Shown here: positions 2,580-55,050 of the stretch, in pieces
Layout of the letters: every line of letters begins with the position of its first letter
Numbering within the stretch: position 1 is the stretch's first letter
NCBI GenBank assembly: GCA_008632985.1
Contig: QPGO01000311.1
Coordinates: 1-61,331 of the forward strand
Source: Psammoneis japonica
Lineage: Eukaryota
Reading direction: 5' to 3'
Length of the DNA stretch: 61,331 bases
Made by a program: the position numbers and the translations under genes
Notes under the pieces: model-generated
The model's input: the letters and a program-made list of their open reading frames with translations, nothing else
What the model was told of the DNA's origin: nothing
The model's database searches: none

Positions 2580-3236
2580 GATGTGCTGGAAATTTGATTA
2601 AAAGTGTGCATCGAGAGGGCTGGTGGATGAGATGGATGGCAAGTCGAGAGGACACATTTTTTTGGCATGCTCAATCAAATTAACTGCACCGTGTCTGTAG
2701 AAATGAGGCATGTTCGGACGTCAGTTGAGTTGAAGAAGACCAAACACACGAGCTCCGAAAAATGAAAAAGTGAGTGATCACGAGCATTTTTCACGCAGAA
2801 TGGGACACCAGCCGAAAATCACATTTAGCACAATTGAGTCCTTCATTTTTGATCATTTCGAAAATCAAAAGGTGAGTGCACACCCAAAACACATGTAAAG
2901 TGTACACTTGCCCTTCGATTTGGCAAAAAACGGATTTTGAAAAAGTCATTTGCACCAAACCTAAAAATGGGCCAACGATGGGAATCGATCCCACGTGGAG
3001 CACCTGGAGCTGGAACAGGCCTGCTTGAACACACCTGGCATGCTTTTGTTCTCACAAATGCAAAAAACAACGAGTCTTTGGCTTGACAAAACAGGGAATG
3101 TGGGGAAATTTTGCAGAAGAGCACATGCAGAAATGTGTGCGTGCGACATGCATGACAAAAAATGTTCTCACAGCACATGCCAGCAAGCTCCTGCCTGGGG
3201 CTGGAGAGCAGTGCATGCAATGTGCGGCAGGGTGAT

Positions 3237-5861: not shown

Positions 5862-6092
5862 CCTCCAGCCAGCGCAGCGCAGCTGTTGGCTAAAAAATGT
5901 CTGCCCATCAGTGGTTTTGGGGGTTTTGCTTGTGCATTTTTCATTTTTACGTACGAAAAAGACGACTCTGTCTGTCCAGCGTTCACCGAATCTGGCAAAC
6001 CCCCCAAACGCACAGATTGACAGGCTCTTTCAGTACAAATTCTACGTACACAAGTTTCTCTGGCCAGCTGGCTGGAGAGGTCCCCCACATTG
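5862..6092. mobile_element. Degenerate tandem copy of the MITE at 6110-6322
   Basis: Aligns along its length with 6110-6322 (CCAGCCAGC...GGGGGTTTTGC...GTCCAGCGTTCACC...CAGCTGGCTGGAGA) but carries short insertions. Confidence 0.8.
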
Positions 6093-6109
6093 GAAGATCC
6101 ACATCACCA

Positions 6110-6322
6110 CATTGGGGGAAGTCTCCAGCCAGCTGCTGGCTGAAAAAAGTCTGCTCGTCAGTGCGTTTGGGGGTTTTGCAAGTACAATTTTTACGTACGC
6201 AAAAGAAGACGAGTCTGTCCAGCGTTCACCAAATCCCCTAACGCACAGATCGACAGACTTTTTCAGTACAATTTCTACACAAAATTCTTCAGCCAGCAGC
6301 TGGCTGGAGACTTCCCCCAACA
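6110..6322. mobile_element. MITE with ~33-bp terminal inverted repeats, probably Tc1/mariner type (TA target)
   Basis: TTGGGGGAAGTCTCCAGCCAGCTGCTGGCTGAA at the left end is the inverse of TTCAGCCAGCAGCTGGCTGGAGACTTCCCCCAA at the right end. A related copy lies at 39245-39457. Confidence 0.85.
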
Positions 6323-6424
6323 TCACACATCACCCATCAACATCACACAAACTAGTATCTAGAGTTTCCCTAAACCAATAAACGAAGGAAATCTCAACCG
6401 ACAAACGTCAATAATACCTGTACA

Positions 6425-16989: not shown

Positions 16990-17245
16990 CGCCCTCTCTC
17001 TAGCTACAGTAGCTAGCTCTCTCTCTCTCTCTCTCTCTACTCTCTAGAGAGTAGCTACTAGCTAGAGAGTAGAGACTACTAGCTAGAGAGTAGAGAGACT
17101 GACTCTCTCTGAGAGTAGACTGACTCTACTCTCTAGAATAGAGCTAGCTACTTAGAGAGAGAGAGACTATTCATAGAGCTAGGCCCTACAGTACTCGCTA
17201 CTCTAGAGGGCCCTCTACAGCTAGCTATCAGGTACCGGTAGTAGG
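16990..17245. repeat. TAG/CTA/AG-rich low-complexity patch upstream of SZT2
   Basis: CTCTCTAGCTACAGTAGCTAGCTCTCT...TAGAGAGTAGCTACTAGCTAGAGAG, preceded by a (CG)n run at ~16969-16988. Confidence 0.9.
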
Positions 17246-22300: not shown

Positions 22301-22443
22301 GCCAGCCCGCGGTATTTTTCATCCTTCATTCATGTATACGATAATTTCACTCGAAAGCTCTCGGATCACAACGAGCAAAAGGACAATGGTGTTTGGTGTT
22401 GCAAGTTGTGCCCTCACACAATAGCCGAACTGCAGCAGTAACG

Positions 22444-24427
22444 ATGGACCAGTACATTGATAGGAGCAAAAGTGCCTCCAGTCAGAAGCGTGGTACAAAG
22501 AGAAACCACGAACAACATCTAGCGACGATTGAACATACCCCGGATGGCAAGGAAGTGCTCGTTATTTATTCTTCAAGTGAAAACGAGGAGGATGACGTGC
22601 TTGTCATTGATGATTCCAGCGACGACGAGGATGATCGCAAACCTGCAGCAAAGGAAGTTGTCGACTTGGAAAGATCACAAGACACTGCGAGAGATGACGA
22701 ATCGAGAAGTGTTGATGAGACTCCAAGAGCGGCACTTCCTCGTTCTGCTGCTGCGTTGTCGACAGTACTTCCCCAGAAAGTCCCAAAAAAAGTAACTCCT
22801 CCCCCGGAGAGTCAGGATGAATCAGTAGTCTCTTCCACCAGAACTGCCGCTTCTTCTTCTGCTGCTGCTACTTCTGCAGTTGCCACTCTGTCGGCTGCCG
22901 CTGCTGCTTCTCCTGCTGCCACGTTGCCTACTTCTGCGGCTGCTGCTGCTGCTACTCTGGCACCCGATGCGGTTGCTCGTTTACCGTCGGCAAGTGACGC
23001 GGACATAGCGGCAGGTCCAGACGAGGCGGACGATGTAGATGATGTGTTTGAAGAAGAAGAGTTTGGCACTCTCTTGGCCGATTGTCGAGATGTAACCCTT
23101 GGCAGGTTGGAACAAGCAAACGACGCTGGCGCAAGCTTGATGACAGTGGATCAAGTGCAAGACTTGTTTCGAGGGTTTGAGCAAGACTTGGGAAAAACAT
23201 TGACCGACATTGAAATGGACAAGGCTGTCAAGGGAAGTGACGTGTCGAAGGATGACAGTACAGAACAAGAGCGAGCACTGTATGGAAGAGCCTTGCCTGC
23301 TCTCGTCATGGTAAGATGCCTATGCGTCTTCTTTTCATGCATTGTTGAAATAGCGATATGTTATCTCACCATGTTCATTGTCTCTCTTTTTGTTACGTAG
23401 AAACTAGAAACTATTTTCACATCACTAGAAGAATCTGATGTTTTTGGGGACGTTGGGCATGGACTTGGGACGGTCTGTACCCAAGTGGCGCTTGCACGAG
23501 GCTGTGAAGCCAGGGGCATTGAAATGAATGTAAGACTCGCTGCCGCGTCGTGTTGAAAACTTGACTTTATTCCTTTTTCTTATTTGTCTGCCTTTTGTGT
23601 TTTGCTCAGGCGGCACGCAATAACGTTGCCTGCGGAATCCTCAGCCATGTCAGGGACGTACTCCAGCAGCGGAGGAGCCAAGGCGAAAAGTTTCGACACG
23701 GCCTTGTCCGGTTTCGGTAAGTTGATAATGTGTTTTCTGTCACACTGTATCAACATGATCTCATTGGATATTGTAATTCTTCTTTTTCAAAAGGCACGGA
23801 AGGTTGGAAGATCCCGCCCACCGCATGTTCTTGACAGACCAGGTGAACCGTCTTTTCTGCAACAATTTTAATGATGTCTTTGGAGGGCGGGCAACAAACA
23901 CCATCAAGGCTACCCCGGACTACTACTTGGCCGGGATCTTTACTCAAATGTTGCCTGGGGCAGAGCTTGTGACGCTCCACCCAATACCAGGCTTGCCGCC
24001 GCCAATTTCTGAAATTAACTCGACTCGTAAAGACAGTGGCCTAAGGGAATACGAGTATGCTTCGTTCTATGAGATGGAGGAGTTTCTGATTGAGGGTGAG
24101 GAAGACGGCACGGAGTATCTGGATTTTCTGAACCCCAAAGAGTCGTTTCGCATGTACAAGTACACCAAAAAGACATACCAGGCAGAGTTTCTGTGCACGG
24201 TAAAATCTTGCGATTCCAACAAGAAGGGTGAGCCTATGCGCATTCAAGCATGGACCGAGGTGACGAAAACTGTCATGGTCAAAAAGAAGGGAAAGAAGAA
24301 TCACAAGTTTGATGAGGTGCGCATTGTGCCGGTGTCTGTGTGCCCTCACTGTAGCAAGACGAACCCGAGCTTGCGCAAGAGGGGTAAAGCCGTGACGTAT
24401 CGAGAGAGTAGTAGGAAAAGAAAATGA
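22444..24427 (+). CDS. DOT1-like (histone H3K79-type) SAM-dependent methyltransferase; exons 22444-23310, 23401-23529, 23610-23716, 23794-24427
   Basis: Splicing three GT-AG introns gives a continuous frame: ALYGRALP...ESDVFGDVGHGLGTVCTQVALARGCEARGIEMN...RHGRLED...RLFCNNFNDVF...MLPGAELVTL. This parallels the DOT1 motifs YGE, DVFxDLGSGxG, GxE, IFxNNF and GxRIVS. The N-terminus is acidic and Ala-rich. Confidence 0.75.
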
Positions 24428-24843
24428 GTTCGTGAATTGACACTTTAAAACCGTGGGACGGGGAGTGGGGTAGTGTGTGACGAGGCTCGATTAAAAGGGT
24501 GAAAACTTGCTGTAGTCGTCTGCATAATCTTGGTTAAACTGTTTTCACAGCTGCTGAAACCGTGAAGCGGCTCATCGCGTGTTTAGTACAAATTTGTTCC
24601 GGAGACATATCGTCGTTCATCGTAACGATTGCTTGACAATAACGATGAATCCGGGATAATCATATGACAAAAACTGTAGAAATTAAGTTTATAACAGGAT
24701 GCGATAATCAGCGCTATTGTATCGTTTGCTCTGGCGACGCATTTTGCGGCGGACCGAACGCCATGGTGCTCGTGCGTGGTGAAAGCACGGAGGGAGCTCG
24801 AAGGGGACCTCGAGTAGAACCGAACCTCTTGATACTTTTTTAA

Positions 24844-25311
24844 CCCTTCAACCACCGGACTCCCTTACGTCACAAATATAGTAAATGAAGTAATTTCAGA
24901 TATGGATAATATTAAGTTCGCGCGATTTTGTTTTGGAACGCGCATTCGCCGAAAATCCCGGGGAACCCTTTTTGAAATTTAGAAAGTTCAATGTCGACTT
25001 TTAACACCGGGTTTTTTGCAAGCTACATCTATGAATAGAGAGGAACTAAATGTCAACCTTTAACAATGGAGGTTATCATGAATTACTATCGCAAATAGAC
25101 CAACAATACCACACCCTTGGAGCAAATCTCCACCGGTGGAGATTTGCTCCCAATAAGTAAATGCACGTGGTATACTTTACGTAGACTCTACGCGACATGA
25201 CATTTTTATACTATGTTCATTATATGGGTATAAAGTTGCATGACACGTCACACATCCTTAAGTAGAGCAAATCTCCACCCGTGGAGATTTGCTCCCCTGG
25301 TGGTTGAAGGG
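24844..25311. mobile_element. piggyBac-type MITE, unmutated copy A
   Basis: TTAA target duplication at 24840-24843 and 25312-25315; TIR CCCTTCAACCACC / GGTGGTTGAAGGG; internal palindromes at 25119-25150 and 25265-25294. Confidence 0.92.
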
Positions 25312-25418
25312 TTAAGTTGAAACGGTAGAGAGACGACGATGGCAAGAGATTGACGTACAAGTTCAAAGTACAGTGACCGTGAATTATTAATTTGATAAAC
25401 GGAATAGCAAAGCAACAC

Positions 25419-26051
25419 ATGGCGGACCAAAAACTGAAAACTCCGGCGAAGTTAGACTCCTCGCTTGAGCTTCCTCCAAACGAGACAGAATCATCAACCA
25501 GCCTGGCGTCCAGCGAAAAAGCGGTACTTCACGACAACCCTGACTACATCGCTCCCAGCCAGCAGGACATTCTTCTCTTGGACGTTACCTCGAAGATCCT
25601 TCACAGCAAAATCAGTGCCGAATTGGGTGTAAATTACTTGTCGGCCGCCGCGGACCCTCAAAGCTCCCCTCTGTTTGGCCGCCTGTATGGCCTCAACAAA
25701 CGTCTCATGTTAAACGTGGTTACACGTCGTCGCAGCCGTCGTGGCGACAGAGGACCAGAGTATCCAAGCGCCAACATAATCTTCCTCTGTAACACCGGGT
25801 CACCAAACACATTCATTTGCGAAGAAGCCATGCGTGTCCTGCTCGGCAAGAAAGCCTGTGATGTTATGCCCGAGAACTTATTTGTCCAGATGGCTGACTT
25901 TCCCGCTGTGGAGGCACACCTATCTCCAAATCCTAGCCACTACGTCGATGTGAATGTCATTGGTATGGATCTTCTGTCGCAGTTGCAATTGACCGTCTTT
26001 GGAAGAGACCTCGAGTTCGAGCTGAAGAACATGGATCACACAGTGCCTTAA
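25419..26051 (+). CDS. Retropepsin-like (aspartic protease fold) protein with Asp->Asn at the expected catalytic position
   Basis: IIFLCNTGSPNTFI resembles FLxDTGSPxTxI; the downstream VNVIGMDLL resembles the ILGxDFL motif. Confidence 0.55.
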   Translation: MADQKLKTPAKLDSSLELPPNETESSTSLASSEKAVLHDNPDYIAPSQQDILLLDVTSKILHSKISAELGVNYLSAAADPQSSPLFGRLYGLNKRLMLNVVTRRRSRRGDRGPEYPSANIIFLCNTGSPNTFICEEAMRVLLGKKACDVMPENLFVQMADFPAVEAHLSPNPSHYVDVNVIGMDLLSQLQLTVFGRDLEFELKNMDHTVP

Positions 26052-26349
26052 ATGATGATAGCTAGGGCCCTACTCCAGTAGCCCCCTACTAGGAGTCACC
26101 CTCTATTAAGAAGTCCTTCGTGGCAATATTTTGGAAGTAAGCTTTCAGATTGATTGGAGTTAAAGGAAATATTTCTTGATATCACCAATGTTACCCCGGA
26201 TGATGGGACAATTTACCAGAGAATCCAACTTGCTGGTCCATCAAGACCCTGTCTATAGACAGTATGTGGATCCAACAGGGTGCATTAGGTCTAGACATGC
26301 TACTCAGTCATCTGTGGCAGAAGGTGGTGGGGCCACACCATTTCTCAAA

Positions 26350-26675
26350 CGCAGCGGCGGCTCTCGTTTTCGGTCGTTTGGGAATCCCGGCTTCTTTGTC
26401 TTGCGGTCTACATGATGGCGACGATTGCCGGCTATTTCATGACGACGGCCTTGGTATTTTATATCGTCGTCGGCATGATCGGCCTGGTTCAGGGTGGTAG
26501 TCGCTCGTTGTTTGGTGAATTGATTCCGAAGAGTCAGTCTGCGCAGCACTACGGCCTTTACAATATGCTGGGCAAGTTCGCCACGGTTCTGGGGCCGGTG
26601 GTCGCGGGTTTTGCGACATGGATGACAGGGGATCCGCGCCTTGCGATGTTGACGACATTGGTCTTTTCGTTGTAG
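26350..26675 (+). pseudogene. C-terminal fragment of an MFS transporter (UMF1/Atg22-like)
   Basis: AALVFGRLG in one frame, then GLVQGG-SRSLFGELIP..SAQHYGLYNMLGKFATVLGP..TGDPR; truncated at both ends. Confidence 0.7.
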
Positions 26676-27685
26676 GTGGAGAATTGTAGCTGCGGGACGA
26701 CGGCAGGCATGATGCACCGCGTGGATGGCATAGAAGGTTCTGTTCAGCACAATGTCAACGACTCTGGTATAGCCTTGGTCGAAGTCCATGGTGTACGTGT
26801 AGGCCTGACACCGGATCAGTTTCGAAAGGACTTTATACAAGCACCCAAGGAGAAGTCTTACATCTACAACCTCAATGACTGGCTTGTTTCGGCTCTTCAT
26901 CTGACACTCAAGGAGACGAAAGAGGAGTGCGAACCAACCTTTGCCAGCATTCCGCTATCCTCTCTCCGTTTTGTACCTAGCATTAGCATCGTACTTTCGC
27001 CATCCCGGAGTGATCTTCCACTCGATGGCTGCAATTACGTGGCACGAGAAAAGCGTCGGCTACCGTGAATAGATTGTCGGCAACCTACAAAACTACAATC
27101 TCTGAAAGGTGGTCCGTGATCCTCAATCGGTCAATTTTTCCATATTTGATGACAATGGGGCTGCGAACGCGGGTGGCCTCTCCAAACACAATTGCACCTG
27201 TCATGCTAGAAAAGAGGATTCCGAAAACACTCATGGGAATTCGTGAGCTTTGTCTAGAGGAATAATTTTCAGAGCAGCCGACACGGCAACAATGTCCCGC
27301 CATGTCGCTCTGCTGCTTTCGACCATGCTTTCAACAACGGGGAAAAGCTTGTGCGTGATTGAAGTTCTTGTTGCCGGTATGGTACGCAACGCAGCTTCTG
27401 AAGCACCAAATGTCTTCGATCCAATATGCACATGTCGGCGACTGGGAAGGAGGCCAGATTCAATAACCAAGTGCCGTTTGTCCTTTGTATTAGATAGTCG
27501 TCTGGATAAGGTGGTAGCCAAGTTTTGGGAAGTGATGGGTATGTATGGGAGAGCGTCGTGGTTCTTGGCAAAAGCTCACCATCCTCTCGAGCGATTCATC
27601 AAAACAACAATTAGACTGGGGGTCGATCAACAACCAATTCAAAGCTCCTGAACTCACGTCAATTGTGATTGCCACGAAGAACAGC

Positions 27686-29179
27686 TTATATTAGTTGGGG
27701 TAACGTCACAGCGATTGCGGAGTAAGGCTCTTCTGTCGTCGCACTCGCTGGTCTTTGCAGTGTCCACCGCAACGGGACTTTTTCGATAATGAGGCCCCGA
27801 ACCAAGTCATAAACATGCTGGCACGTGTCTGAGCCATCACACGCCATCAGTTTGGGAGCGGTTACACTCCCACAAAGAGCCTTCATTATTTCTTCGCTGG
27901 CGTCAACGGCAAAGTAACCCGACGTATTCTTGAGCGTGATGGTGGCCTGGCGGTACCGTGCCCTCTTTTCGCCGTTCTTGTCAACCAAAATGTACAACAG
28001 CTTAGATGCCGTCGGCCACTGATGTAGATAACCTGCTAGAGAAACATCCAAGTCCTTGATGTATATATCCTCGACTGCGGAGTCTATGATAACCTTGTTT
28101 TCATCAGTCGGAAGAATCATGGAGAGCGCCTCTTGTGTGTGAAATGTAGACGTCACACTCGGAGTATCCTCGTGTTGGGTTTGAAGCGGAAACAAGAGAC
28201 TGGTTGCAGTCGGAATAAGAACAACCTCATCGTTACGAGTGGCACTTTGCATGTCAGTGAGTCGCACGCATTGTCTTGCAGCAACTGCTTGTTGCAACAA
28301 TTCACCCCAGGACGGCTTGCAATCACAAAGAGCCATCATGTCACCATCTTCCTTGGCAGTATTTGCATCCGTAATCATGGCAACAATGGACGACTCTTTT
28401 CGTGGGCTCTTATTGCCTTGTGAGATTGTATTGCACGACAGGACACGAACAACAACGACACTTAACCGATCAGACGCGGTAGCTACTTCGGAAAGGGTAC
28501 GTAGTCTGACGGATTGCGAACGGCTGAGCAAAGGAGATCTCGGTTCTTGCCGGTTAAACCAATCAATGAGCGATTCGATTTGGAGTTTTGAGGTACAAAA
28601 GCTGTCTGGAACAGGCCTACTGTCCCTCCTGATGGCCTGCCCATTTCGAATGGAGCACAATCTCACCCACTGCGCGTCTGTTGTAGGAGGATGCTTCCAA
28701 GAATGTCGAAACTCACAGGCAACCTTCCACTGATTATTATTGCTTTCTGCTTTTTGTATCCTGAGCTTCTTTTTCGGTTGCTCCATTTGGCAGCTTTTTT
28801 TGTATAACACCAATTGATTGATACGCAACACGTCGCACCGAGCAACGTCCTGCTGCAAAAGGCTCTGTACGGCTCCTTTGAGTTTCACCCGTGCACAATT
28901 CGCCATGCTGTCTAGAGATGGATCAGAAATCAGCAAGGTTGCCGTGGATTGTGCTAGATTCACGGAAACATCCATGACGATCCCGACAAGATCGACCGGG
29001 ACTACGACATCGGGTTGGTCTCGAGCGAGTTTCATGGCGTCCGCAATGCTGGGTAATGTTTCTTCATCAGTTGCAGTTCCTTCTGTAGATGTGCCTGGTC
29101 GTTGATGCGGCCTTTTCTGAGCTGCGTTGCTTGCATAGCAAGCAGTATTTTTGGAAGACATTCGTACTTTCAATAACAA
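27686..29179 (-). CDS. Uncharacterised protein, possibly with a POT1/TEBP-alpha-like OB fold
   Basis: Intact 497-aa ORF. VDLVGIVMDV...TLLISDPSL...DVLRINQL...IESLIDWF follows the spacing of the POT1 OB1 domain, but the resemblance is weak. Confidence 0.5.
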   Translation of the reverse strand: MLLKVRMSSKNTACYASNAAQKRPHQRPGTSTEGTATDEETLPSIADAMKLARDQPDVVVPVDLVGIVMDVSVNLAQSTATLLISDPSLDSMANCARVKLKGAVQSLLQQDVARCDVLRINQLVLYKKSCQMEQPKKKLRIQKAESNNNQWKVACEFRHSWKHPPTTDAQWVRLCSIRNGQAIRRDSRPVPDSFCTSKLQIESLIDWFNRQEPRSPLLSRSQSVRLRTLSEVATASDRLSVVVVRVLSCNTISQGNKSPRKESSIVAMITDANTAKEDGDMMALCDCKPSWGELLQQAVAARQCVRLTDMQSATRNDEVVLIPTATSLLFPLQTQHEDTPSVTSTFHTQEALSMILPTDENKVIIDSAVEDIYIKDLDVSLAGYLHQWPTASKLLYILVDKNGEKRARYRQATITLKNTSGYFAVDASEEIMKALCGSVTAPKLMACDGSDTCQHVYDLVRGLIIEKVPLRWTLQRPASATTEEPYSAIAVTLPQLI

Positions 29180-29356
29180 CGCATCATCGCCGAAACCAAC
29201 TATGGATACATACTCCTCGATACCGTACCGTAGACTCTCCTCATGATGGAGTAGAAGATCGATGTGTTGGTGCGATGCGGCCAGAAAGAGACTGAGAGAA
29301 TGAAATCTCGGGAGTTCGGAGCTCGTACTGTTTGTCGCAAAAACACACGCTCACGA

Positions 29357-29664
29357 GCTCACGAGACTCTCCTCCATTCTCTCTCTAGCTACGGTAGTAG
29401 AGCTAAGAGAGTAGAGCTAGCTCTAGAGTAGAGGGTCCTCTACTCTCTAGATAGACAGAGATAGTGCGAAAAGTGAGAACACTACTCTAGGTACTACGAG
29501 AGGAAAGAAATTAGAAAACATTAGGCTCACGACTCCTCCATTCTGAGCTCTAGAGCTAGCTCTAGAGTAGAGGGCCAACTACTCTACAGTAGATAGGCAG
29601 AGATAGTGTGAAAAGTGAAAACACTAAAGGTATTACGAGAGGAAAGAAATTAGAAAGCCTTAGG
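29357..29664. repeat. Direct tandem duplication (29357-29524 and 29525-29664), TAG-rich
   Basis: Shared blocks GCTCACGA..CTCCTCCATTCT, GAGCTAGCTCTAGAGTAGAGGG, CAGAGATAGTG and TACGAGAGGAAAGAAATTAGAAA..TTAGG. Confidence 0.9.
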
Positions 29665-30414
29665 TATATATAACTAAAGGAAGCTTTTAGAAAACGTGTA
29701 AAAGCTGCTTGATGCTGTTGTCGCCGGTGTTGGCGATAAATGATGGTGCTGACTAACAACACTTACTTTGCACTGTATTACACGCCGTCAAACTCCAGTG
29801 CAATTGTTTGCTCGGCGCATCATATCCGAACTTGATTTTGTTGCGGACCACACTCTTGATGCTGGAACACATCTGGAGTCAGATCACCCCAGTTTCATTG
29901 ACGCAACCTACAGAGAAAGAAGGGCCGCGTTGACTTGAGTCGGCCAAGAATCATGAATGTCAGAAGCCAATTGCGCCGGTGGATTATTCCAGACGAGATT
30001 GCAACGTGGGCTGCCGAACAAGTCGACACGTGGTAACCAGAGAAGAAAAGATTTTCCACAACCTGGTTGTGGGTCTGTTTTCCGTCTAACCAGAAAGGCG
30101 AGCAGTTTCATAACCTTTACTCAAGACGATGCAGCGTTTTAGCCCAAAAAGAGTTTGCAAGTTTTACTTTACTACTCAGACTTCCTAGAGCAACGATGCA
30201 ACATTTGCTGATCCACACATGCTATTAGCATGCTTGCTTCTGAGGTCTTGGCAAAATGTTGGTGACAGGGAGAAGAAGTTGTCCAGGTACTGCTGAGAGA
30301 GTATTTCACCGTAACCGAAAAGGTCGTTCTGGAACTTCCACCACAAGGCATGCGTTTTGATGCGACTTGGGATGTCTGGGACAATGGCAACGCCTTGACT
30401 CTGGAACTTGCGTG

Positions 30415-31446
30415 CTATGGCTGTTGGCCAACACAGCGGGGAGACACAACGTGTGCTGGTTCCTGCTGGTGCAATTGCTTGGAGCTGCACGTTGTTCTCG
30501 GCAGCAAGGAGGAGGACGCAGACCAATCGCTATGGCTGCAGCTGGACGCGCAGACTTGACGCAGTCGTTCTTGAACCTTCTTCAATTTCAAAGAGTCTGC
30601 ATCAATGGATGCAACTCTAGCAAGATGCTGCAAATGATCATACCGACTTGCTGAAGGAAGACTGGAAACGGCATCCAACGCATTTGCCATCGACACCAAG
30701 GCAACAGACGATGGCTTCGATGTGTCTACACCGGCAATGAGTGAAAGCTCGGTTTGGAACCGAGCATACTCAAACACCACGCTAAGTTCTTCCTCCTTCA
30801 TCAGATCTCTTGGAAACAATCGTAGGAATTGATGGATATAAGAAAGTGCTGTTGGGGGGTTCAATCTCCATTCAAGAGCTTGAAGCATCAAGAGCTCCAT
30901 GTCCTTAATCTGCTGTTCCGAATAAACGCCGCGAGACAATGCAGAGACAACCCTCGGGTCCATTACCTCTGCTTCGTTCATCTTTACAGCAATGTACAAG
31001 GCTGTCATGGAGGCAAGCTGATATGTTCTCCGGTGCTCGAGTGAAGGCCGACCGACTTCTGTCATAAGGAATCGGTCGAGATGCGACATTGCAATGGTGA
31101 CAACTTCGCGACTGAACCGACAAACATCAGCAACATGAAAGGACCACTCTGCCATTTTCAGTCTACATTTGAAATCAACAGGCAGGTCCCAACCTTGTGC
31201 AACGCCCCCCGGGTCGACGGGGTTCGCATGATGTTGTGCTGCGTAAATGTCGGTTCGACAGTGGTAGGACGATTCTTCTTGTCGTCGCATGACCTCAATA
31301 GTGGACTCCACATCTTCATAGTACTCCATTGCTCCAACATTCGGCATTATTGGTGTAAAATGTATCATCGTTGACGGGTTTGAATTGACACGACTTCGGG
31401 TGTTGGTTTTATGTTGTGGCGAACACGGTTCGAATTTTTGACACAT
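30415..31446 (-). CDS. Cyclin, diatom-specific type (dsCYC-like)
   Basis: Cyclin box CRLKMAEWSFHVAD..SREVVTIAMSHLDRFL, YQLASMTALYIAVKMNE and MELLMLQALEWRLNPPT. The true start is probably a downstream Met. Confidence 0.92.
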   Translation of the reverse strand: MCQKFEPCSPQHKTNTRSRVNSNPSTMIHFTPIMPNVGAMEYYEDVESTIEVMRRQEESSYHCRTDIYAAQHHANPVDPGGVAQGWDLPVDFKCRLKMAEWSFHVADVCRFSREVVTIAMSHLDRFLMTEVGRPSLEHRRTYQLASMTALYIAVKMNEAEVMDPRVVSALSRGVYSEQQIKDMELLMLQALEWRLNPPTALSYIHQFLRLFPRDLMKEEELSVVFEYARFQTELSLIAGVDTSKPSSVALVSMANALDAVSSLPSASRYDHLQHLARVASIDADSLKLKKVQERLRQVCASSCSHSDWSASSSLLPRTTCSSKQLHQQEPAHVVSPRCVGQQP

Positions 31447-31749
31447 CAGATTTTTAGAGAGAATCGCTGCATAATCGGCGATATGAGAACCCCATATCCG
31501 CGATCACAACAATACTTATTCAACGGAAGGAAAGCACTATTTCAATGATACATCGTTGTCACACTTCAGATTGTACTGCAATTTCGTGCAAAAACTGACG
31601 AATGATAAGCTACAGGAATGTATTGCAATGATATAAATATGTACATATAAATTTTTATATTACAATGATACGTGGAACAGATTGCAGAGAACATTCTGCT
31701 TCCAACAAAACGCACGCTCCAATGTTCTCTCCACGACTTAAACCAAGAT

Positions 31750-33290
31750 CAACGCCCCCGGAAAAAACGAATTTGTGTTCTTCTTTCTACTTCTTTCTCA
31801 TTCCTGGCGGCTTGCAGTTTCTGGAAATGACAGTGGTGGGGTGGCCCTGATTGTTCACAACAAGGTTCTTGTGCTGTTCACTGAAAAGAGAACTGAGTGC
31901 AAACAACTCTGTTGCATCTGCCCAGCTTGGTGGCTGCTGCAACAGCGCTCCTTGCAGCCAAGAGCAAAAGCAGCTTGCTTCATCAAACCAATGGCCAATT
32001 TTTGGCTGCGCGGCAATGTTGCCAACCAAGCCCTGACAACAAGCGTGGCCACACAGCTGCGCTGAAAAAAAACACCTGTGCTGTGACCAAGATTGCAGCA
32101 GCGGACATTGCTCCACACACCAGCTTCGTCAACTTGTCTCACACACCACAGAGTTCTTTTTAACCCTTCAACCACTGAACTTGAGCAAATCTCTGTGGGT
32201 GGAGATTTGCTTGCTTGCATCACAAACACAGCAAATGGAGCAATTTAAGACATGCACAACATTTTGTTCGCACGATTTTGTTTTGGAGCGCGCATTTGCC
32301 GAAAATCTGAGGGAACCCTTTTTGCAATTTAGAAAGTTCAATTGAAAAAATTTGTGAACAGAGAGGAGCCAAATCTCAACCTTCAACAATGCAGGTTGTC
32401 ATGAATTGCCCCATCACAAACAGAGGAATGACACCACACCCTTGGAGCAAATCTCCGCCGGCGGACATTTGCCCCCAACAAGCAAGTGCACATGGCATGC
32501 TTCGCACAGATTGTGCATGATGTGATGTTTTCATGCTGTGTGCATTGCACTGTTGCAAAAGTGGAGATTTGCTCCCCTGGTGGTTGAAGGGTCAAAGTTT
32601 CTGAAAGTTTGCCATGTGCCGCCGCAGGTCAGGCGCCAGTTGGAGCAGAGATGTTGGTGTTTTCAAGAACTCCCAATGCTTGGGTCATGTGTGTAGAACT
32701 GAACAAATTCAACAACTGTTGTGACCATCACGGGACAGTTTGGTGACATTTTGGTGCTCTGGTGCACCAAAATTTTTGGCAGAAATTAAGTGACAAATGG
32801 CATGGCCTGATGAAATGGGGGGGCCAAGCAACAAGAGCAGAACATGACAAGCATTGGAATGCAGAGGAGTGTGAAAGTGAGACCAAAGCAGCAGCACAGC
32901 AGCAGGAAAAGTGGAGCAAAAGTTGCTCACAGCAGAGAAAACAGAAAAGCTGCTGTGGTGTGCACTGAGCACACTCCAGCGCAACAAGTGGAGGGTGCAA
33001 AGACACAGCGCCACCACGGGACTGGGTGGCCAGGTGCTTGCCACCCCTGCTCAAAAGCGCTGTCCACTGAACTGGACTCTGGGGCAGGAGAGACACTTTG
33101 CTCTTAAAAAAAAATGTTGGCACTCTGGCGGCACAGCCTCTTCTTTGACACTGCATCCCACCTGTGTTGTGCTGTGCAGAGACACGAAGCAGCTGACAGC
33201 GCAGCAGCCAGCAACACTCCTCATTGTCAATGTTGCTCAGCTGATTTGAGAGGTGCATGTCAACAGGTTGAAGGTTGATGCCCGCATTTT
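31750..33290. other. TpA-depleted domain 3, containing piggyBac MITE copy B
   Basis: TA is nearly absent; survivors are mostly in TTTA/TTAA/TAAA contexts. Confidence 0.9.
32164..32591. mobile_element. piggyBac-type MITE, hypermutated copy B
   Basis: TTAA|CCCTTCAACCAC...GGTGGTTGAAGGG|TCAA; collinear with 24844-25311. Confidence 0.92.
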
Positions 33291-33551
33291 AAATGTGCTG
33301 CATTTCGTCCCAGTTTACTGCTCTTTTTGCCCTCACTTCGTCATGCGCCGCCCGACAACAGACCAGACCGACCGGCACGCACGATGTACAGTGTTTGCGC
33401 GCGCACTGCCTGGTACGAGAGACTGGCGATCGACCGACGACCATCAGACATTTCGTTCGTTCGTGGCGTTTCGGCCCTTCACTCTTTACGGTACCCACTC
33501 GTCGCACCGCAACTTGAAACTACTTTTCTGCAATGCATCAATAAGAGGGTG

Positions 33552-34930
33552 ATGCATGCTTTGAAACACCTGTTACTTCATTTTTCGTTTTGTGGGATAT
33601 TCTATAGTATGTCTGCAGGTGCGGCGGCAACGAGGGCGAGTTTGTCGTTCCTGAAATGTCGGCATCATGTTCGTGCGACCGCCTTTCTTAGAAACGGCAT
33701 GTATGCAACCCGCTGCTTTGTGAGGACTCCCGCGGTTCAAGCCGATCAGGCGTCTGCTAATGGCAGTCGCCCCTTGTCGATGGATGACACACCGCTTGGT
33801 ACGGAAGAAGGCCAAGCCTTGTTGGACGGACTCGATGTCTACACGGTCCAATCAAGCGACGACGATCACCCCTTGACGGTTTATGGTATTCACAGTTTAG
33901 ATCCCCGACAAATTTCGGATACAGGCGAATACTCCTTGCGACCGATTTTGATGTTGCACGGAAGGACTTGGTCCTCGGTGCCGGTTTATCACTTGTTGGG
34001 TGGAAGCCATCAATGGCGGACACAGGAATCGCGGTCCCTCATGGAGGCCTTGTTGGAAATGGGTCTGCAACCGTACTGTATGGATTTTCGTGGATTTGGT
34101 GGAACCCCTCCCGACGAAACAGGCCAGGTGGAACCCAACCGTTGTGTACAGGATGCGGAGACCGTGTTGAAATGGATTGCAAAGCGACACGGACTGGACA
34201 TGGATCGGGCAGATGACACATATCATTTACTGCACAGCCAAGCTCCGGCATTGATGGGTTGGTCTCAAGGTGCGCTTGTAGCACAGTTGGTTGCTCAGAA
34301 AAGCCCACAATTGCTTTCCAAATTAGTCTTGTATGGATCCATTTATGATCCTCTGATTCGATATCCACGAGCCCCACTTTACAAGGCGAGAAACGTGACA
34401 GCTGACGGTGGTAAGGAAACTCCAAAACAAGTGATCAAGAATGATTTGGATAGTGCCATTGAAGATTTCACAGTCGAGGGAACCATTCCTCCAGAACCTG
34501 CGAGACTGTTTGCAGAGGCTGCTCTCTTGACCGACCCTATCAAAGCGAAGTGGAATCACTTGCATCAGTTTAACAATTGCGACCCAGCACGAGTTCATGT
34601 GCCCACACTTGTGGTAAGTTCTGGATTGACCGTGTCTCTAATGTCAACAGCATGCTATCGCATGGTGGTCTTCAATGCTTGTTTCTGTTTACTAGTAGTC
34701 TCACTCTTGTTTGTTTGTCCCAGATTGCTGGTGACCAGGATCCATATGCCCCGCTACACGTTCAGATGGAGTTGTTCTCGAATTTGGGACGTGGGGCTGA
34801 CCGAACATGGTCTATCTTGGCTGATGCTGATCATGCCGCGCATTTGTTGGATGGAAGAGCGCGCTTTACCAAGACTGTGACAAACTTTTGTCGAAACGGC
34901 AAACGCAGTGATCACGGACACTTTTATTAG
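33552..34930 (+). CDS. Alpha/beta-fold hydrolase; intron 34614-34723
   Basis: LMLHGRTW, DFRGFGGT, nucleophile elbow GWSQG, acid in GDQD and His in ADHAAH after splicing GTAAGT...CCCAG. Confidence 0.9.
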
Positions 34931-39187: not shown

Positions 39188-39244
39188 GGTTGCTTGCTTG
39201 TTGCTTTTGATGTTGTGAGCAACATCCAACAACACGAAGCGCCA

Positions 39245-39457
39245 TGTTGGGGGACGTCTTCGGAAGTGAGACTGTCGAAGAAAGTTGCGTAGAATTTGTG
39301 CTAAAACAGTCTGTCAATCAGTGCGATTGGGTGTTTGGGACCTCTGGACAGATCACACGTGTTTTCTTGTGCGTGCAAATTGCACTGGAAAAAACCCCAA
39401 ATGCACTGGCGATCAGACCGCCTTTGACGATCTCACTTCCAAAGACGCCCCCCAATG
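39245..39457. mobile_element. MITE related to 6110-6322, in opposite orientation
   Basis: TIR TGTTGGGGGACGTCTTCGGAAGTGAGA / TCTCACTTCCAAAGACGCCCCCCAATG; the interior aligns with the reverse complement of 6110-6322. Confidence 0.8.
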
Positions 39458-53959: not shown

Positions 53960-55050
53960 GACCATTTTACCGGTGTCAACATGTCGAGCATCACAAGGCT
54001 AGGCAGGAAAGAGGTGTTGAAGTGTCTCAAGCACAAGCGGGGGAAGCAGGTCTCTTGGGAGGTCAAACTGCACCTCACACCAACATGTGTCCCCGAAGAA
54101 GATGTCATCAGATTTCCTCTGAACCACAAGTTGGAGGGTGTCAGATTTTAAATTGTGACATCTGCGGACATGATGGTGTGAGATTGTGCAGTTTGACTGT
54201 CGCAAGAATCGATGTCCCCTCTTGATGATGTTTCGATGCATGCATGGTTTGCTGGTCTTGCAAAGAGATGTCATCATCATCCAGCTTCTAGCCTGTTCCA
54301 GCTCCAGGTGATGCACACAGGCTCGACTCCCATCGCTGGCCCATTTTTGCATTCAGCACAACAAACTCCTTCAAAATCAGGTTTTTGCCAAATCAAAGGG
54401 TGAGTGCACACTTTGCATGTGTTTTCTGGTGTGCACTCACCTTTCGACGTTCGAAAAGATCAAAATTGAAGAAGTTCGCTGCGCTGAACTGGCGCAGATG
54501 ATCGGCCTCTCGCATGATGGATTTCTCATCACCTGGGGCTGGAACAGGCCTTCTCCAAGTTGCGCTTTGTGTCAAGTCCCGGGAAAATCCGCTCATGAGC
54601 GGAAATTTCGTCGCCAGCTTTGGCTGCGGATGAGTGTGGTGGTTGTGCAGAAAACGAGGAAAGCTCTTGGAATTTTGGAGAAATTGTCCAAATCAAATTG
54701 ACAATGAGCAAAGTGAGCTCCAAGTTGGGTGTTGTTTGTGAAATGGGGGGTGAGGCAATGGCTGCCTCGTGAAGGTTCTGACTGCTGGGTGCTCCCAAGC
54801 AAGGCTGCCGGGGTTCACGGCAGCAAGCAGATGGCGCTCCACCCTCAGCAGCGGCGCTTGGTGTGATGCACAACAAATTCAAGACACGCTCTAGCCTGGG
54901 GTGTGGGGCTGCGGGGCGTGTTACACTCGGAGCGCGGTAAATTTGCCAGCCAATGAACACATGAATGATCGCCAAAGGCCTCAGTTGAAGCACGCGCACA
55001 TCATTTTGACTTTGGTCCTTCATAATCGGACAACACAACATGCTGTCAAA
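53960..55050. other. TpA-depleted domain 7
   Basis: Few TA between the M17 peptidase and SERF genes; contains a MITE. Confidence 0.8.
54290..54550. mobile_element. Non-autonomous derivative (MITE) of the transposon at 1-3021
   Basis: TIR (A)GCCTGTTCCAGCTCCAGGTGATG / CATCACCTGGGGCTGGAACAGGCC with a 4-bp flanking duplication TTCT; the interior aligns with the reverse complement of ~2830-3021. Confidence 0.88.

Follow-up and report, generated by a model that had tools for sequence, protein, structure and literature searches.

Copies of a short transposon family in the genome of the diatom Psammoneis japonica lose their TA dinucleotides after insertion, through A>G changes on either strand that turn TA into TG or CA within discrete domains crossing the ends of the elements into neighbouring DNA. 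Two copies lie in the window analysed here, the whole 61,331-nucleotide contig QPGO01000311.1 (C313 of a 91-Mb, 597-contig assembly); one, copy A, is nearly intact and the other, copy B, is almost fully converted. An earlier note had proposed that targeting follows chromatin domain or age rather than repeat identity. Comparison across the family supports this interpretation in part. Repeat identity does not decide, as proposed, but the ‘or’ has to give way, since depleted domains contain two copies that are intact: both the position of a copy and its residence time matter. We favour, with a probability of about 0.68, the reading that A and B are piggyBac-type MITE copies whose TA loss was set by presence in a putative silenced domain and by the time spent there, not by their identity.

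Two MITE copies and their neighbourhoods

The window alternates between DNA with a TA observed/expected ratio of about 0.5 and blocks at about 0.05, the latter low in CG and high in CA and TG. Copy A, with both TTAA target duplications, spans 24840–25315 on the forward strand (TTAA 24840–24843, element 24844–25311, TTAA 25312–25315), lacks about 30 bp near its left end and falls within a segment, 22313–31788, that a two-state segmentation assigned to undepleted DNA. Its left terminal inverted repeat (24844–24856, forward strand, 13 bp, starting CCCT) pairs with one at 25299–25311 on the reverse strand, and the full intact copy L002 likewise has 13 matching terminal bases just inside the TTAA. 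An internal 30-bp palindrome of the family is found at 25120–25149, with a second copy at 25265–25295. A contains 39 TA and 20 CG in 476 bases and retains 34/37 family TA sites and 15/15 CG sites, so that the term ‘untouched’ used previously is close to correct without being absolute.

The placement of A between two genes was confirmed. On its left is a spliced DOT1-like methyltransferase gene (22444–24427, forward strand, start codon predicted from the sequence) whose stop lies 413 bp upstream of A, whose exon at 23401–23529 matches Pfam DOT1 (PF08123, E 2.3e-5, over the cut-off) and whose GT..AG joints are present in the contigs of run X2. On its right is a 210-aa open reading frame (25419–26051, forward strand) with its ATG 104 bp downstream of A, covered from 25434 by an X2 contig that starts 119 bp from A. 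The retropepsin-like label of this frame is at lead level, the Pfam search having given no match and the Atlas having returned retropepsin hits at 0.87–0.88. Its best Atlas clusters (0.96) are unnamed eukaryotic proteins, and the frame has N-T-G-S at the place of the catalytic D-T-G motif of retropepsins. The intergenic gap that holds A is about 1 kb, with X2 contigs covering both neighbours. Two minor features were seen nearby. At position 26254, X1 and X2 each show one A more than the assembly, which probably has an indel at this point, close to an MFS/ATG22-like gene; and TA-rich palindromic repeats of the CTACTCT/AGAGTAG type, undepleted and in short intergenic gaps (17017–17218, 26060–26110 and 29411–29664), may be promoter elements.

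Copy B (32160–32595, forward strand; TTAA 32160–32163, element up to 32591, TCAA 32592–32595) has lost 33/34 family TA sites, and its right target duplication has been mutated to TCAA. It holds 3 TA and 9 CG in 436 bases, and each of the three remaining TA is preceded by TT. Where 33 TA sites of A could be aligned to B, the latter has 20 CA, 10 TG, 1 CG, 1 TT and 1 TA; the 15 CG sites of A correspond to 6 CA, 2 TG, 1 GA and 6 CG. The description of the pair as the same MITE is right at the level of the family, but A and B belong to different subfamilies as judged by subfamily clusters and by 73% identity in local alignment.

As previously described, B lies inside a 1.5-kb depleted domain, placed by the segmentation at 31791–33289 and extending 369 bp to the left and 694 bp to the right of the element. 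The 6 TA of this domain compare with 96 after shuffling of its bases and with about 53 predicted from the background in genic DNA (Poisson P 5e-16). In genome searches at E<=0.001 the left flank (31560–32158) and the right flank (32600–33350) each had itself as the one match, and searches of this type were sensitive enough to detect 70–90% repeats in two other flanks. To the left of the domain is a cyclin gene (stop-to-stop frame 30415–31503, reverse strand; PF00134, E 2.6e-17; X2 contig 29698–31423) and to the right an alpha/beta hydrolase gene (stop-to-stop frame 33279–34880, forward strand; PF12146, E 1.9e-8), for which an X2 contig runs from 33496 and includes a GT..AG joint. Because GT..AG joints occur in X2 and none in X1, we read X2, which is listed as ‘DNA?’, as spliced RNA. 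The domain ends 368 bp (left) and 207 bp (right) before these contigs, and the gap between the two genes is about 2 kb. A position between genes, offered as what distinguishes A from B, is therefore common to both.

Run X1 differs from the assembly at four positions in the domain of B, all four of them CpG transitions lying outside the element (three beyond the element ends on unique DNA and one at 39 bp from the right end), compared with two differences in about 11 kb of undepleted DNA elsewhere (binomial P 0.002). This pattern suggests that the flanks of B are currently methylated. Further short inverted-repeat families also occur in depleted blocks of the window (2841–3020 with 54291–54471, and 5875–6323 with 39244–39418); the first of these adjoins MITE copy L034 elsewhere and gave about 40 scored matches.

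The MITE family and its loss of TA after insertion

Loci of the family were collected with two DNA searches, in which 40 candidates were scored out of 115 and 40 out of 113, and with two patterns for the element ends, which gave 54 and 47 matches. Of the 80 loci found, 78 were aligned; dropping 8 short ones and collapsing 6 same-locus twins left 64 independent copies, a set that represents most, not all, of the family. The hallmarks of piggyBac/TTAA MITEs are a TTAA duplication and 12–19-bp terminal inverted repeats starting CC[C/T]T (PMC2872659). The family agrees with these in its TTAA duplication, its 13-bp repeats starting CCCT, its lack of a coding frame and its many short, similar-sized copies (PMC2872659). 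TTAA is present at 10/11 target duplications of intact copies, and L002 measures 506 bp with its duplications and has a longest ATG frame of 40 aa. The search for an autonomous partner gave 16 matches to PF13843, and none of the 12 loci fetched had MITE-type ends within 1.5 kb. In the piggyBac transposase frames L105, L104 (on C345 and C114) and L106, the depletion of TA tails off part of the way into the element (0.1 to 0.6), a further inward gradient. One copy of the MITE outside the window adjoins a silicon transporter gene (PF03842, E 3e-154), a gene that identifies the genome as that of a diatom.

The distribution of TA loss in the 64 loci is bimodal, with 7 copies at <=11%, 2 at 30–35% and 55 at >=71%. 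Both ends could be read in 45 saturated copies, and in 35 of these the target duplication on the left is unlike that on the right; the 100 target duplications of saturated copies include 31 TTGA, 29 TCAA and 24 TTAA; since the two duplications have mutated separately, the change at TA came after insertion. At each ancestral TA site some copies have CA and others TG, every copy having changed on its own.

The change is narrow in its chemistry. Transitions were found at 1717/3950 TA bases, compared with 50/3869 at AA, 38/2534 at CA and 16/2110 at GA (104/8513 together), which makes A>G more than 30 times commoner at TA than at AA, CA or GA. Transversions at TA bases numbered 54/3950 and C>T before A 8/2559; TA decreases while CA and TG increase. 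Depleted DNA has a GC content of 0.49 and normal DNA one of 0.48. CG decay accompanies the loss of TA, with 35 of the 37 TA-poor 500-bp bins being CG-poor compared with 8/81 others, and proceeds at 0.29 of its rate (TA being about 3.4 times faster). A model in which TA and CG are lost by one shared clock does not fit well (deviance 98 on 63 df, P 0.003), perhaps owing to heterogeneity among sites. Across the MITE copies there are about 400 TA hits per transversion per site. Such a process would matter for the dating of diatom repeats, as TA sites saturate before the first transversion.

Among the 768 TA remaining in depleted DNA, TTAA and CTAA/TTAG are enriched about 4-fold and ATAT and ATAC/GTAT are reduced to 0.04–0.11, so that RTAY is a hot and YTAR a cold context. 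Family site 171 (window ~24980 and ~32330), within TTTAG, was never CA or TG in the 46/46 saturated copies with a pyrimidine–purine step there. Several candidate signatures were rejected. If the preference resembled that in tRNA anticodon loops, TA preceded by a pyrimidine would be favoured; the opposite was found, YTAR being cold, and a TadA-like spill-over to CA is not seen, CA and AA both being near background. Polymerase-eta-type WA mutagenesis hits AA at a sizeable fraction of the TA rate and produces many transversions; here AA stands at 1.3% against 43% for TA, with the few transversions at TA given above.

Repeat identity, position and age

Near-identical sister copies have met opposite TA fates and repeat identity is therefore not decisive. 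L002 and L015 show 0 transversions in 491 columns but keep 33 and 3 of 37 TA, respectively; L006 and L021 show 2 transversions in 494 columns and keep 24 versus 4. A itself has three relatives at 95–96% identity, and this whole group of four was spared; the subfamily of A comprises four intact and three saturated copies. A second repeat family of about 400 bp (L097:8187–8588) shows the same split, the L063 copy with 2 transversions having lost 22/27 TA and the copies in L095 and L044 retaining 25/27.

Position has left its trace inside single copies. From the depleted side inwards, TA hits by thirds are 7/9, 4/12 and 1/16 in L006, 7/9, 3/12 and 1/16 in L009, and 4/16, 0/12 and 0/9 in L071 (permutation P 1e-4, <1e-4 and 0.03, respectively, weighted by site mutability). 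These gradients come from three copies only, one of which (L009) is split by a nested insertion; saturated copies are hit at 92%, 81% and 91% by thirds and have no gradient. L071 and L087, a same-locus pair, show no TA- or CG-type difference over the 1670 bp of their normal flank, but 24 differences, 17 of them CG-type, over the 1992 bp of their depleted flank; within the element, their TA differences fall in the third adjoining the depleted flank. Another same-locus pair, L062/L065, has 33 TA-type differences in 1606 bp of upstream flank, possibly a moved domain edge. All four copies with two normal flanks are intact, and none of the 55 saturated copies has such flanks (Fisher P 5.5e-5). In regressions of TA loss the deviance was 900 for the null model, 797 with an age proxy, 513 with flank state and 489 with both (61–63 df; overdispersed). 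Flank depletion is a product of the same process, so that the regression and the Fisher test are partly circular.

Age alone, named in the earlier note as the outcome that would overturn its view, does not explain TA loss, since flank state reduces deviance more than the age proxy and since within a single copy, all of one age, loss varies with how far a site lies from the depleted flank. The domains were also described as large, which overstates some that measure only about 0.9–1.5 kb. Depletion spreads past elements by a median of 702 bp over 32 bounded sides, and in the stretch examined the depleted domains end about 80–370 bp before transcribed sequence. Certain observations run against position. 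B, though between genes, was converted, and L002 sits in a nest of young LTR elements and not between genes. Elsewhere, a 25-kb stretch of intermediate depletion (C402:3501–29964, TA 0.2–0.4) surrounds an intact island round copy L005 and is perhaps a domain caught midway.

Age matters also. L003 and L007 are TA-intact with both flanks depleted, which fits late arrivals, and the undepleted segment of L003 coincides in the segmentation with the element ends. The notion that TTAA targets are too scarce in depleted DNA for later insertion was rejected, with 1.0 versus 1.7 per kb. Two transversion clocks disagree. Private transversions within four subfamilies do not differ between 7 intact (18/3231) and 28 saturated (62/12758) copies, whereas transversions unique among all 64 copies are fewer in intact (6/3217) than in saturated ones (118/24494; Mann–Whitney P 0.027). 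Five of the six in intact copies belong to L003; the other six intact copies have 1 in 2723 sites against 6.7 expected at a subfamily-matched rate of 31/12686 (P ~0.01), and by this stricter clock most intact copies look young. A carries 4 private transversions, 2 of which are shared with the saturated copy L050, so that part of its apparent age reflects mosaic inheritance. Distance to the nearest relative averages 1.0% in intact and 1.7% in saturated copies (P 0.25). TA-rich intact copies are found in three to four subfamilies. Since a DNA transposon starts out with the sequence of its donor, these copies would need lineages that were spared while their sisters saturated.

The region of L002 is young and so provides no evidence against age: seven near-identical direct-repeat pairs around it have 2 transversions in 1993 columns, with 100 TA shared and 19 changed in one copy. 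These pairs were chosen from a full self-match list, and the ends and 4-bp duplication were checked for one. An old, spared transposon cluster at this locus was rejected, the apparent 5% transversion divergence coming mostly from one replaced block. The surrounding 139 kb (C196:1–138951; L097, L138–L143, L154–L161) has no fully depleted 2-kb window, the lowest being at 0.2, and young elements of Copia and Gypsy type, with about 10% TA loss, are densely nested over at least 52–116 kb of it. Our guess is that this nest is an insertion hot spot, possibly centromeric.

Alternative readings, known systems and a candidate mechanism

RIP makes C>T changes at CpA and gains TA, requires the pairing of homologous copies, and is marked by strand-coordinated mutation runs, premeiotic timing and dependence on RID/DNMT4. 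The diatom process differs in that it removes TA, closely similar copies escape it and no strand coordination is apparent. The systems are alike in that transposons are riddled by one dinucleotide-specific transition, spread into single-copy DNA is graded and genes are mostly spared (PMC2973834). The process is RIP-like in effect and not RIP by its chemistry. In Neurospora, RIP is reported to extend in a graded manner over at least 930 bp of adjacent single-copy DNA (PMC2973834), and spread into unique flanks alone thus does not exclude a pairing trigger. The proposal that the process acts regardless of homology, unlike RIP, is accordingly not established by the flanks (PMC2973834), although independence from homology is likely.

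A pairing trigger acting on long or clustered repeats, with leakage to neighbours and with an isolated 500-bp element below a length or identity threshold, nonetheless appears quite improbable to us. The 369 and 694 bp around B and the median of 702 bp are within the reported leakage (PMC2973834), other repeats occur in many flanks, and a length threshold and leakage remain compatible with the escape of 95–96% identical copies. Against this, the MITE is the only repeat detected in the domain of B, so that either 500 bp suffices, in which case A, with its three close relatives, should have been hit, or homology is unneeded. The chemistry is reversed, and the 55 saturated copies show no overdispersion or neighbour correlation (P 0.20 and 0.34) indicative of strand-coordinated bursts, which repeated rounds could mask; moreover, the main target in Bigelowiella, discussed below, is single-copy (bioRxiv 10.64898/2026.01.13.699255). 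Residence time alone is a stronger contender, albeit still an unlikely one. Copies would be naive on arrival and, after a lag, be recognised anywhere and seed spread, so that A would be recent and would become like B. The scarcity of unique transversions in six of the seven intact copies, the intact state of L003 and L007 in depleted DNA, the undepleted segment of L003 that stops at the element ends, the youth of the L002 region and the conversion of B between genes and apparently unique flanks all agree with this. Erosion of partial copies inwards from a depleted flank and not from within does not, and intact copies fall in three subfamilies at relative distances like those of saturated ones, requiring repeatedly spared lineages. 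A lag before marking would itself be a chromatin-state effect. No empty-site joint for A was found in the X1 contigs, which cannot prove its absence.

Alternatively, silencing and mutation could start at any copy and selection could remove alleles whose domain reaches a promoter or 3' end, leaving unconverted copies in tight gaps. The closeness of A to a start codon (104 bp) and to an X2 contig (119 bp), and the ending of the domain of B 368 and 207 bp short of X2 contigs, would follow from such a filter. Of the four intact copies that have normal DNA on both sides, however, two (L002 and L005) adjoin retroelement sequence and not genes, and the erosion gradients inside copies are left unexplained; as the sole cause a filter seems very unlikely, while it can act alongside the domain and residence explanation. 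Finally, CpG decay, GC-biased conversion, a TA-poor master copy or assembly error could in principle mimic a special process, and the CG decay is real and co-localised. The more than 30-fold excess of A>G at TA and the near-constant GC content speak against this, the independent run X1 reads the flanks of B with only four differences, and the per-site split between CA and TG and the separate mutation of target duplications already refute it; we give this account almost no credence.

TpA hypermutation has already been described by Mettrop et al. in Bigelowiella natans, where it affects NCLDV and virophage sequences that have become integrated (bioRxiv 10.64898/2026.01.13.699255). The rate is raised about 1000-fold, the process is active in only some lines and the preprint proposes an ADAT-like deaminase (bioRxiv 10.64898/2026.01.13.699255). 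Features in common are the change of TpA to TpG or CpA and its regional action on foreign-type DNA, silent in Bigelowiella and putatively so in the diatom; the target in Bigelowiella can be single-copy (bioRxiv 10.64898/2026.01.13.699255). In the diatom, transitions are confined to TpA (1717/3950 versus 104/8513) and the process is regional, with X2 contigs and Pfam genes in undepleted segments; single-copy DNA may be hit as well, the flanks of B being unique at the sensitivity of the search but lying within leakage distance of a repeat. The signature itself is thus not new. The Bigelowiella targets are viral inserts of 25–186 kb, measured for rate in lines, whereas the diatom target is a 500-bp DNA-transposon family with unique flanks, for which rate was deduced from copies (bioRxiv 10.64898/2026.01.13.699255). 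Relative to the account given in the preprint, the diatom process also has near-complete loss, coupled CpG decay, edges, inward gradients and the RTAY-hot, YTAR-cold context. The words ‘diatom’ and ‘context’ have 0 occurrences in the main text of the preprint (bioRxiv 10.64898/2026.01.13.699255), and a literature search, with most subscription journals outside its scope, found no publication that reports loss of TpA from diatom DNA. The preprint leaves the question of how hypermutation is directed to its targets (bioRxiv 10.64898/2026.01.13.699255). One MITE family offers matched natural experiments on this question (the same sequence with opposite fates, one-sided erosion and same-locus pairs), and these favour position and residence time over repeat identity.

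Two further systems bear on the domains. Transposons of Phaeodactylum that lie in regions with repressive marks are methylated by DNMT5 (PMC9998398), and the diatom studied here has CG loss in the same domains as TA loss and C5-methyltransferase matches in its genome. Deamination of 5mC cannot, however, remove TA, the loss of which is about 3.4 times as fast as that of CG. Dinoflagellate transposons carry 5-hydroxymethyluracil made by TET/JBP and partly overlapping 5mC, a thymine modification on repeats that could serve as a model for a T-centred T>C route (bioRxiv 10.1101/2023.11.30.569493). Its motif is TG-rich, in contrast, and ‘TpA’ and ‘T-to-C’ occur 0 times in the text of that preprint (bioRxiv 10.1101/2023.11.30.569493).

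Under our preferred reading of domain and residence time, the depleted domains would be silenced, CpG-methylated chromatin seeded by transposons, with B perhaps having seeded its own, and would spread over a few hundred bases until bounded by promoters, with a TpA-specific mutator acting inside. A would have escaped mainly because the 1-kb gap that holds it separates two expressed genes, with a start codon only 104 bp away, so that no domain formed or was tolerated there; A may also be a recent arrival. As to chemistry, our leading guess, which falls short of an even chance, is that silent chromatin recruits a DNA adenine deaminase of TadA/ADAT type with a preference for TpA; oxidation of thymine followed by mispairing with G seems less likely, other routes about equally so, and error-prone repair synthesis rather unlikely. 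More broadly, these data may point to a chromatin-guided DNA editor in diatoms, a homology-free, TpA-specific A>G (or T>C) mutator that is recruited by silencing marks, spreads to active promoters and makes silencing permanent through changes to the sequence, a tentative proposal that we hold to be somewhat more probably wrong than right. If true, this would constitute, together with Bigelowiella, a second and possibly old and widespread genome-defence system opposite to RIP in its chemistry, and MITE families would be a ready map of the editor's targeting rules. A natural, targeted, TpA-specific A>G process on chromosomal DNA would bear on genome defence and on the source of new editing enzymes.

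Genome searches for candidate enzymes gave no match for Tet_JBP, in a search run without a positive control, and 9 matches for deaminases, which look to be of ordinary classes with none pointing to chromatin targeting. They also gave 27 C5-methyltransferase matches; those on C297, C301, C10, C28 and C109 include several that are clustered or contain stops, which may be transposon-borne or decayed copies. A 491-aa frame at L119:313–1785 (C79) joins a zinc deaminase domain to a DIOX_N/2OG-Fe(II) oxygenase and probably serves purine or pyrimidine metabolism.
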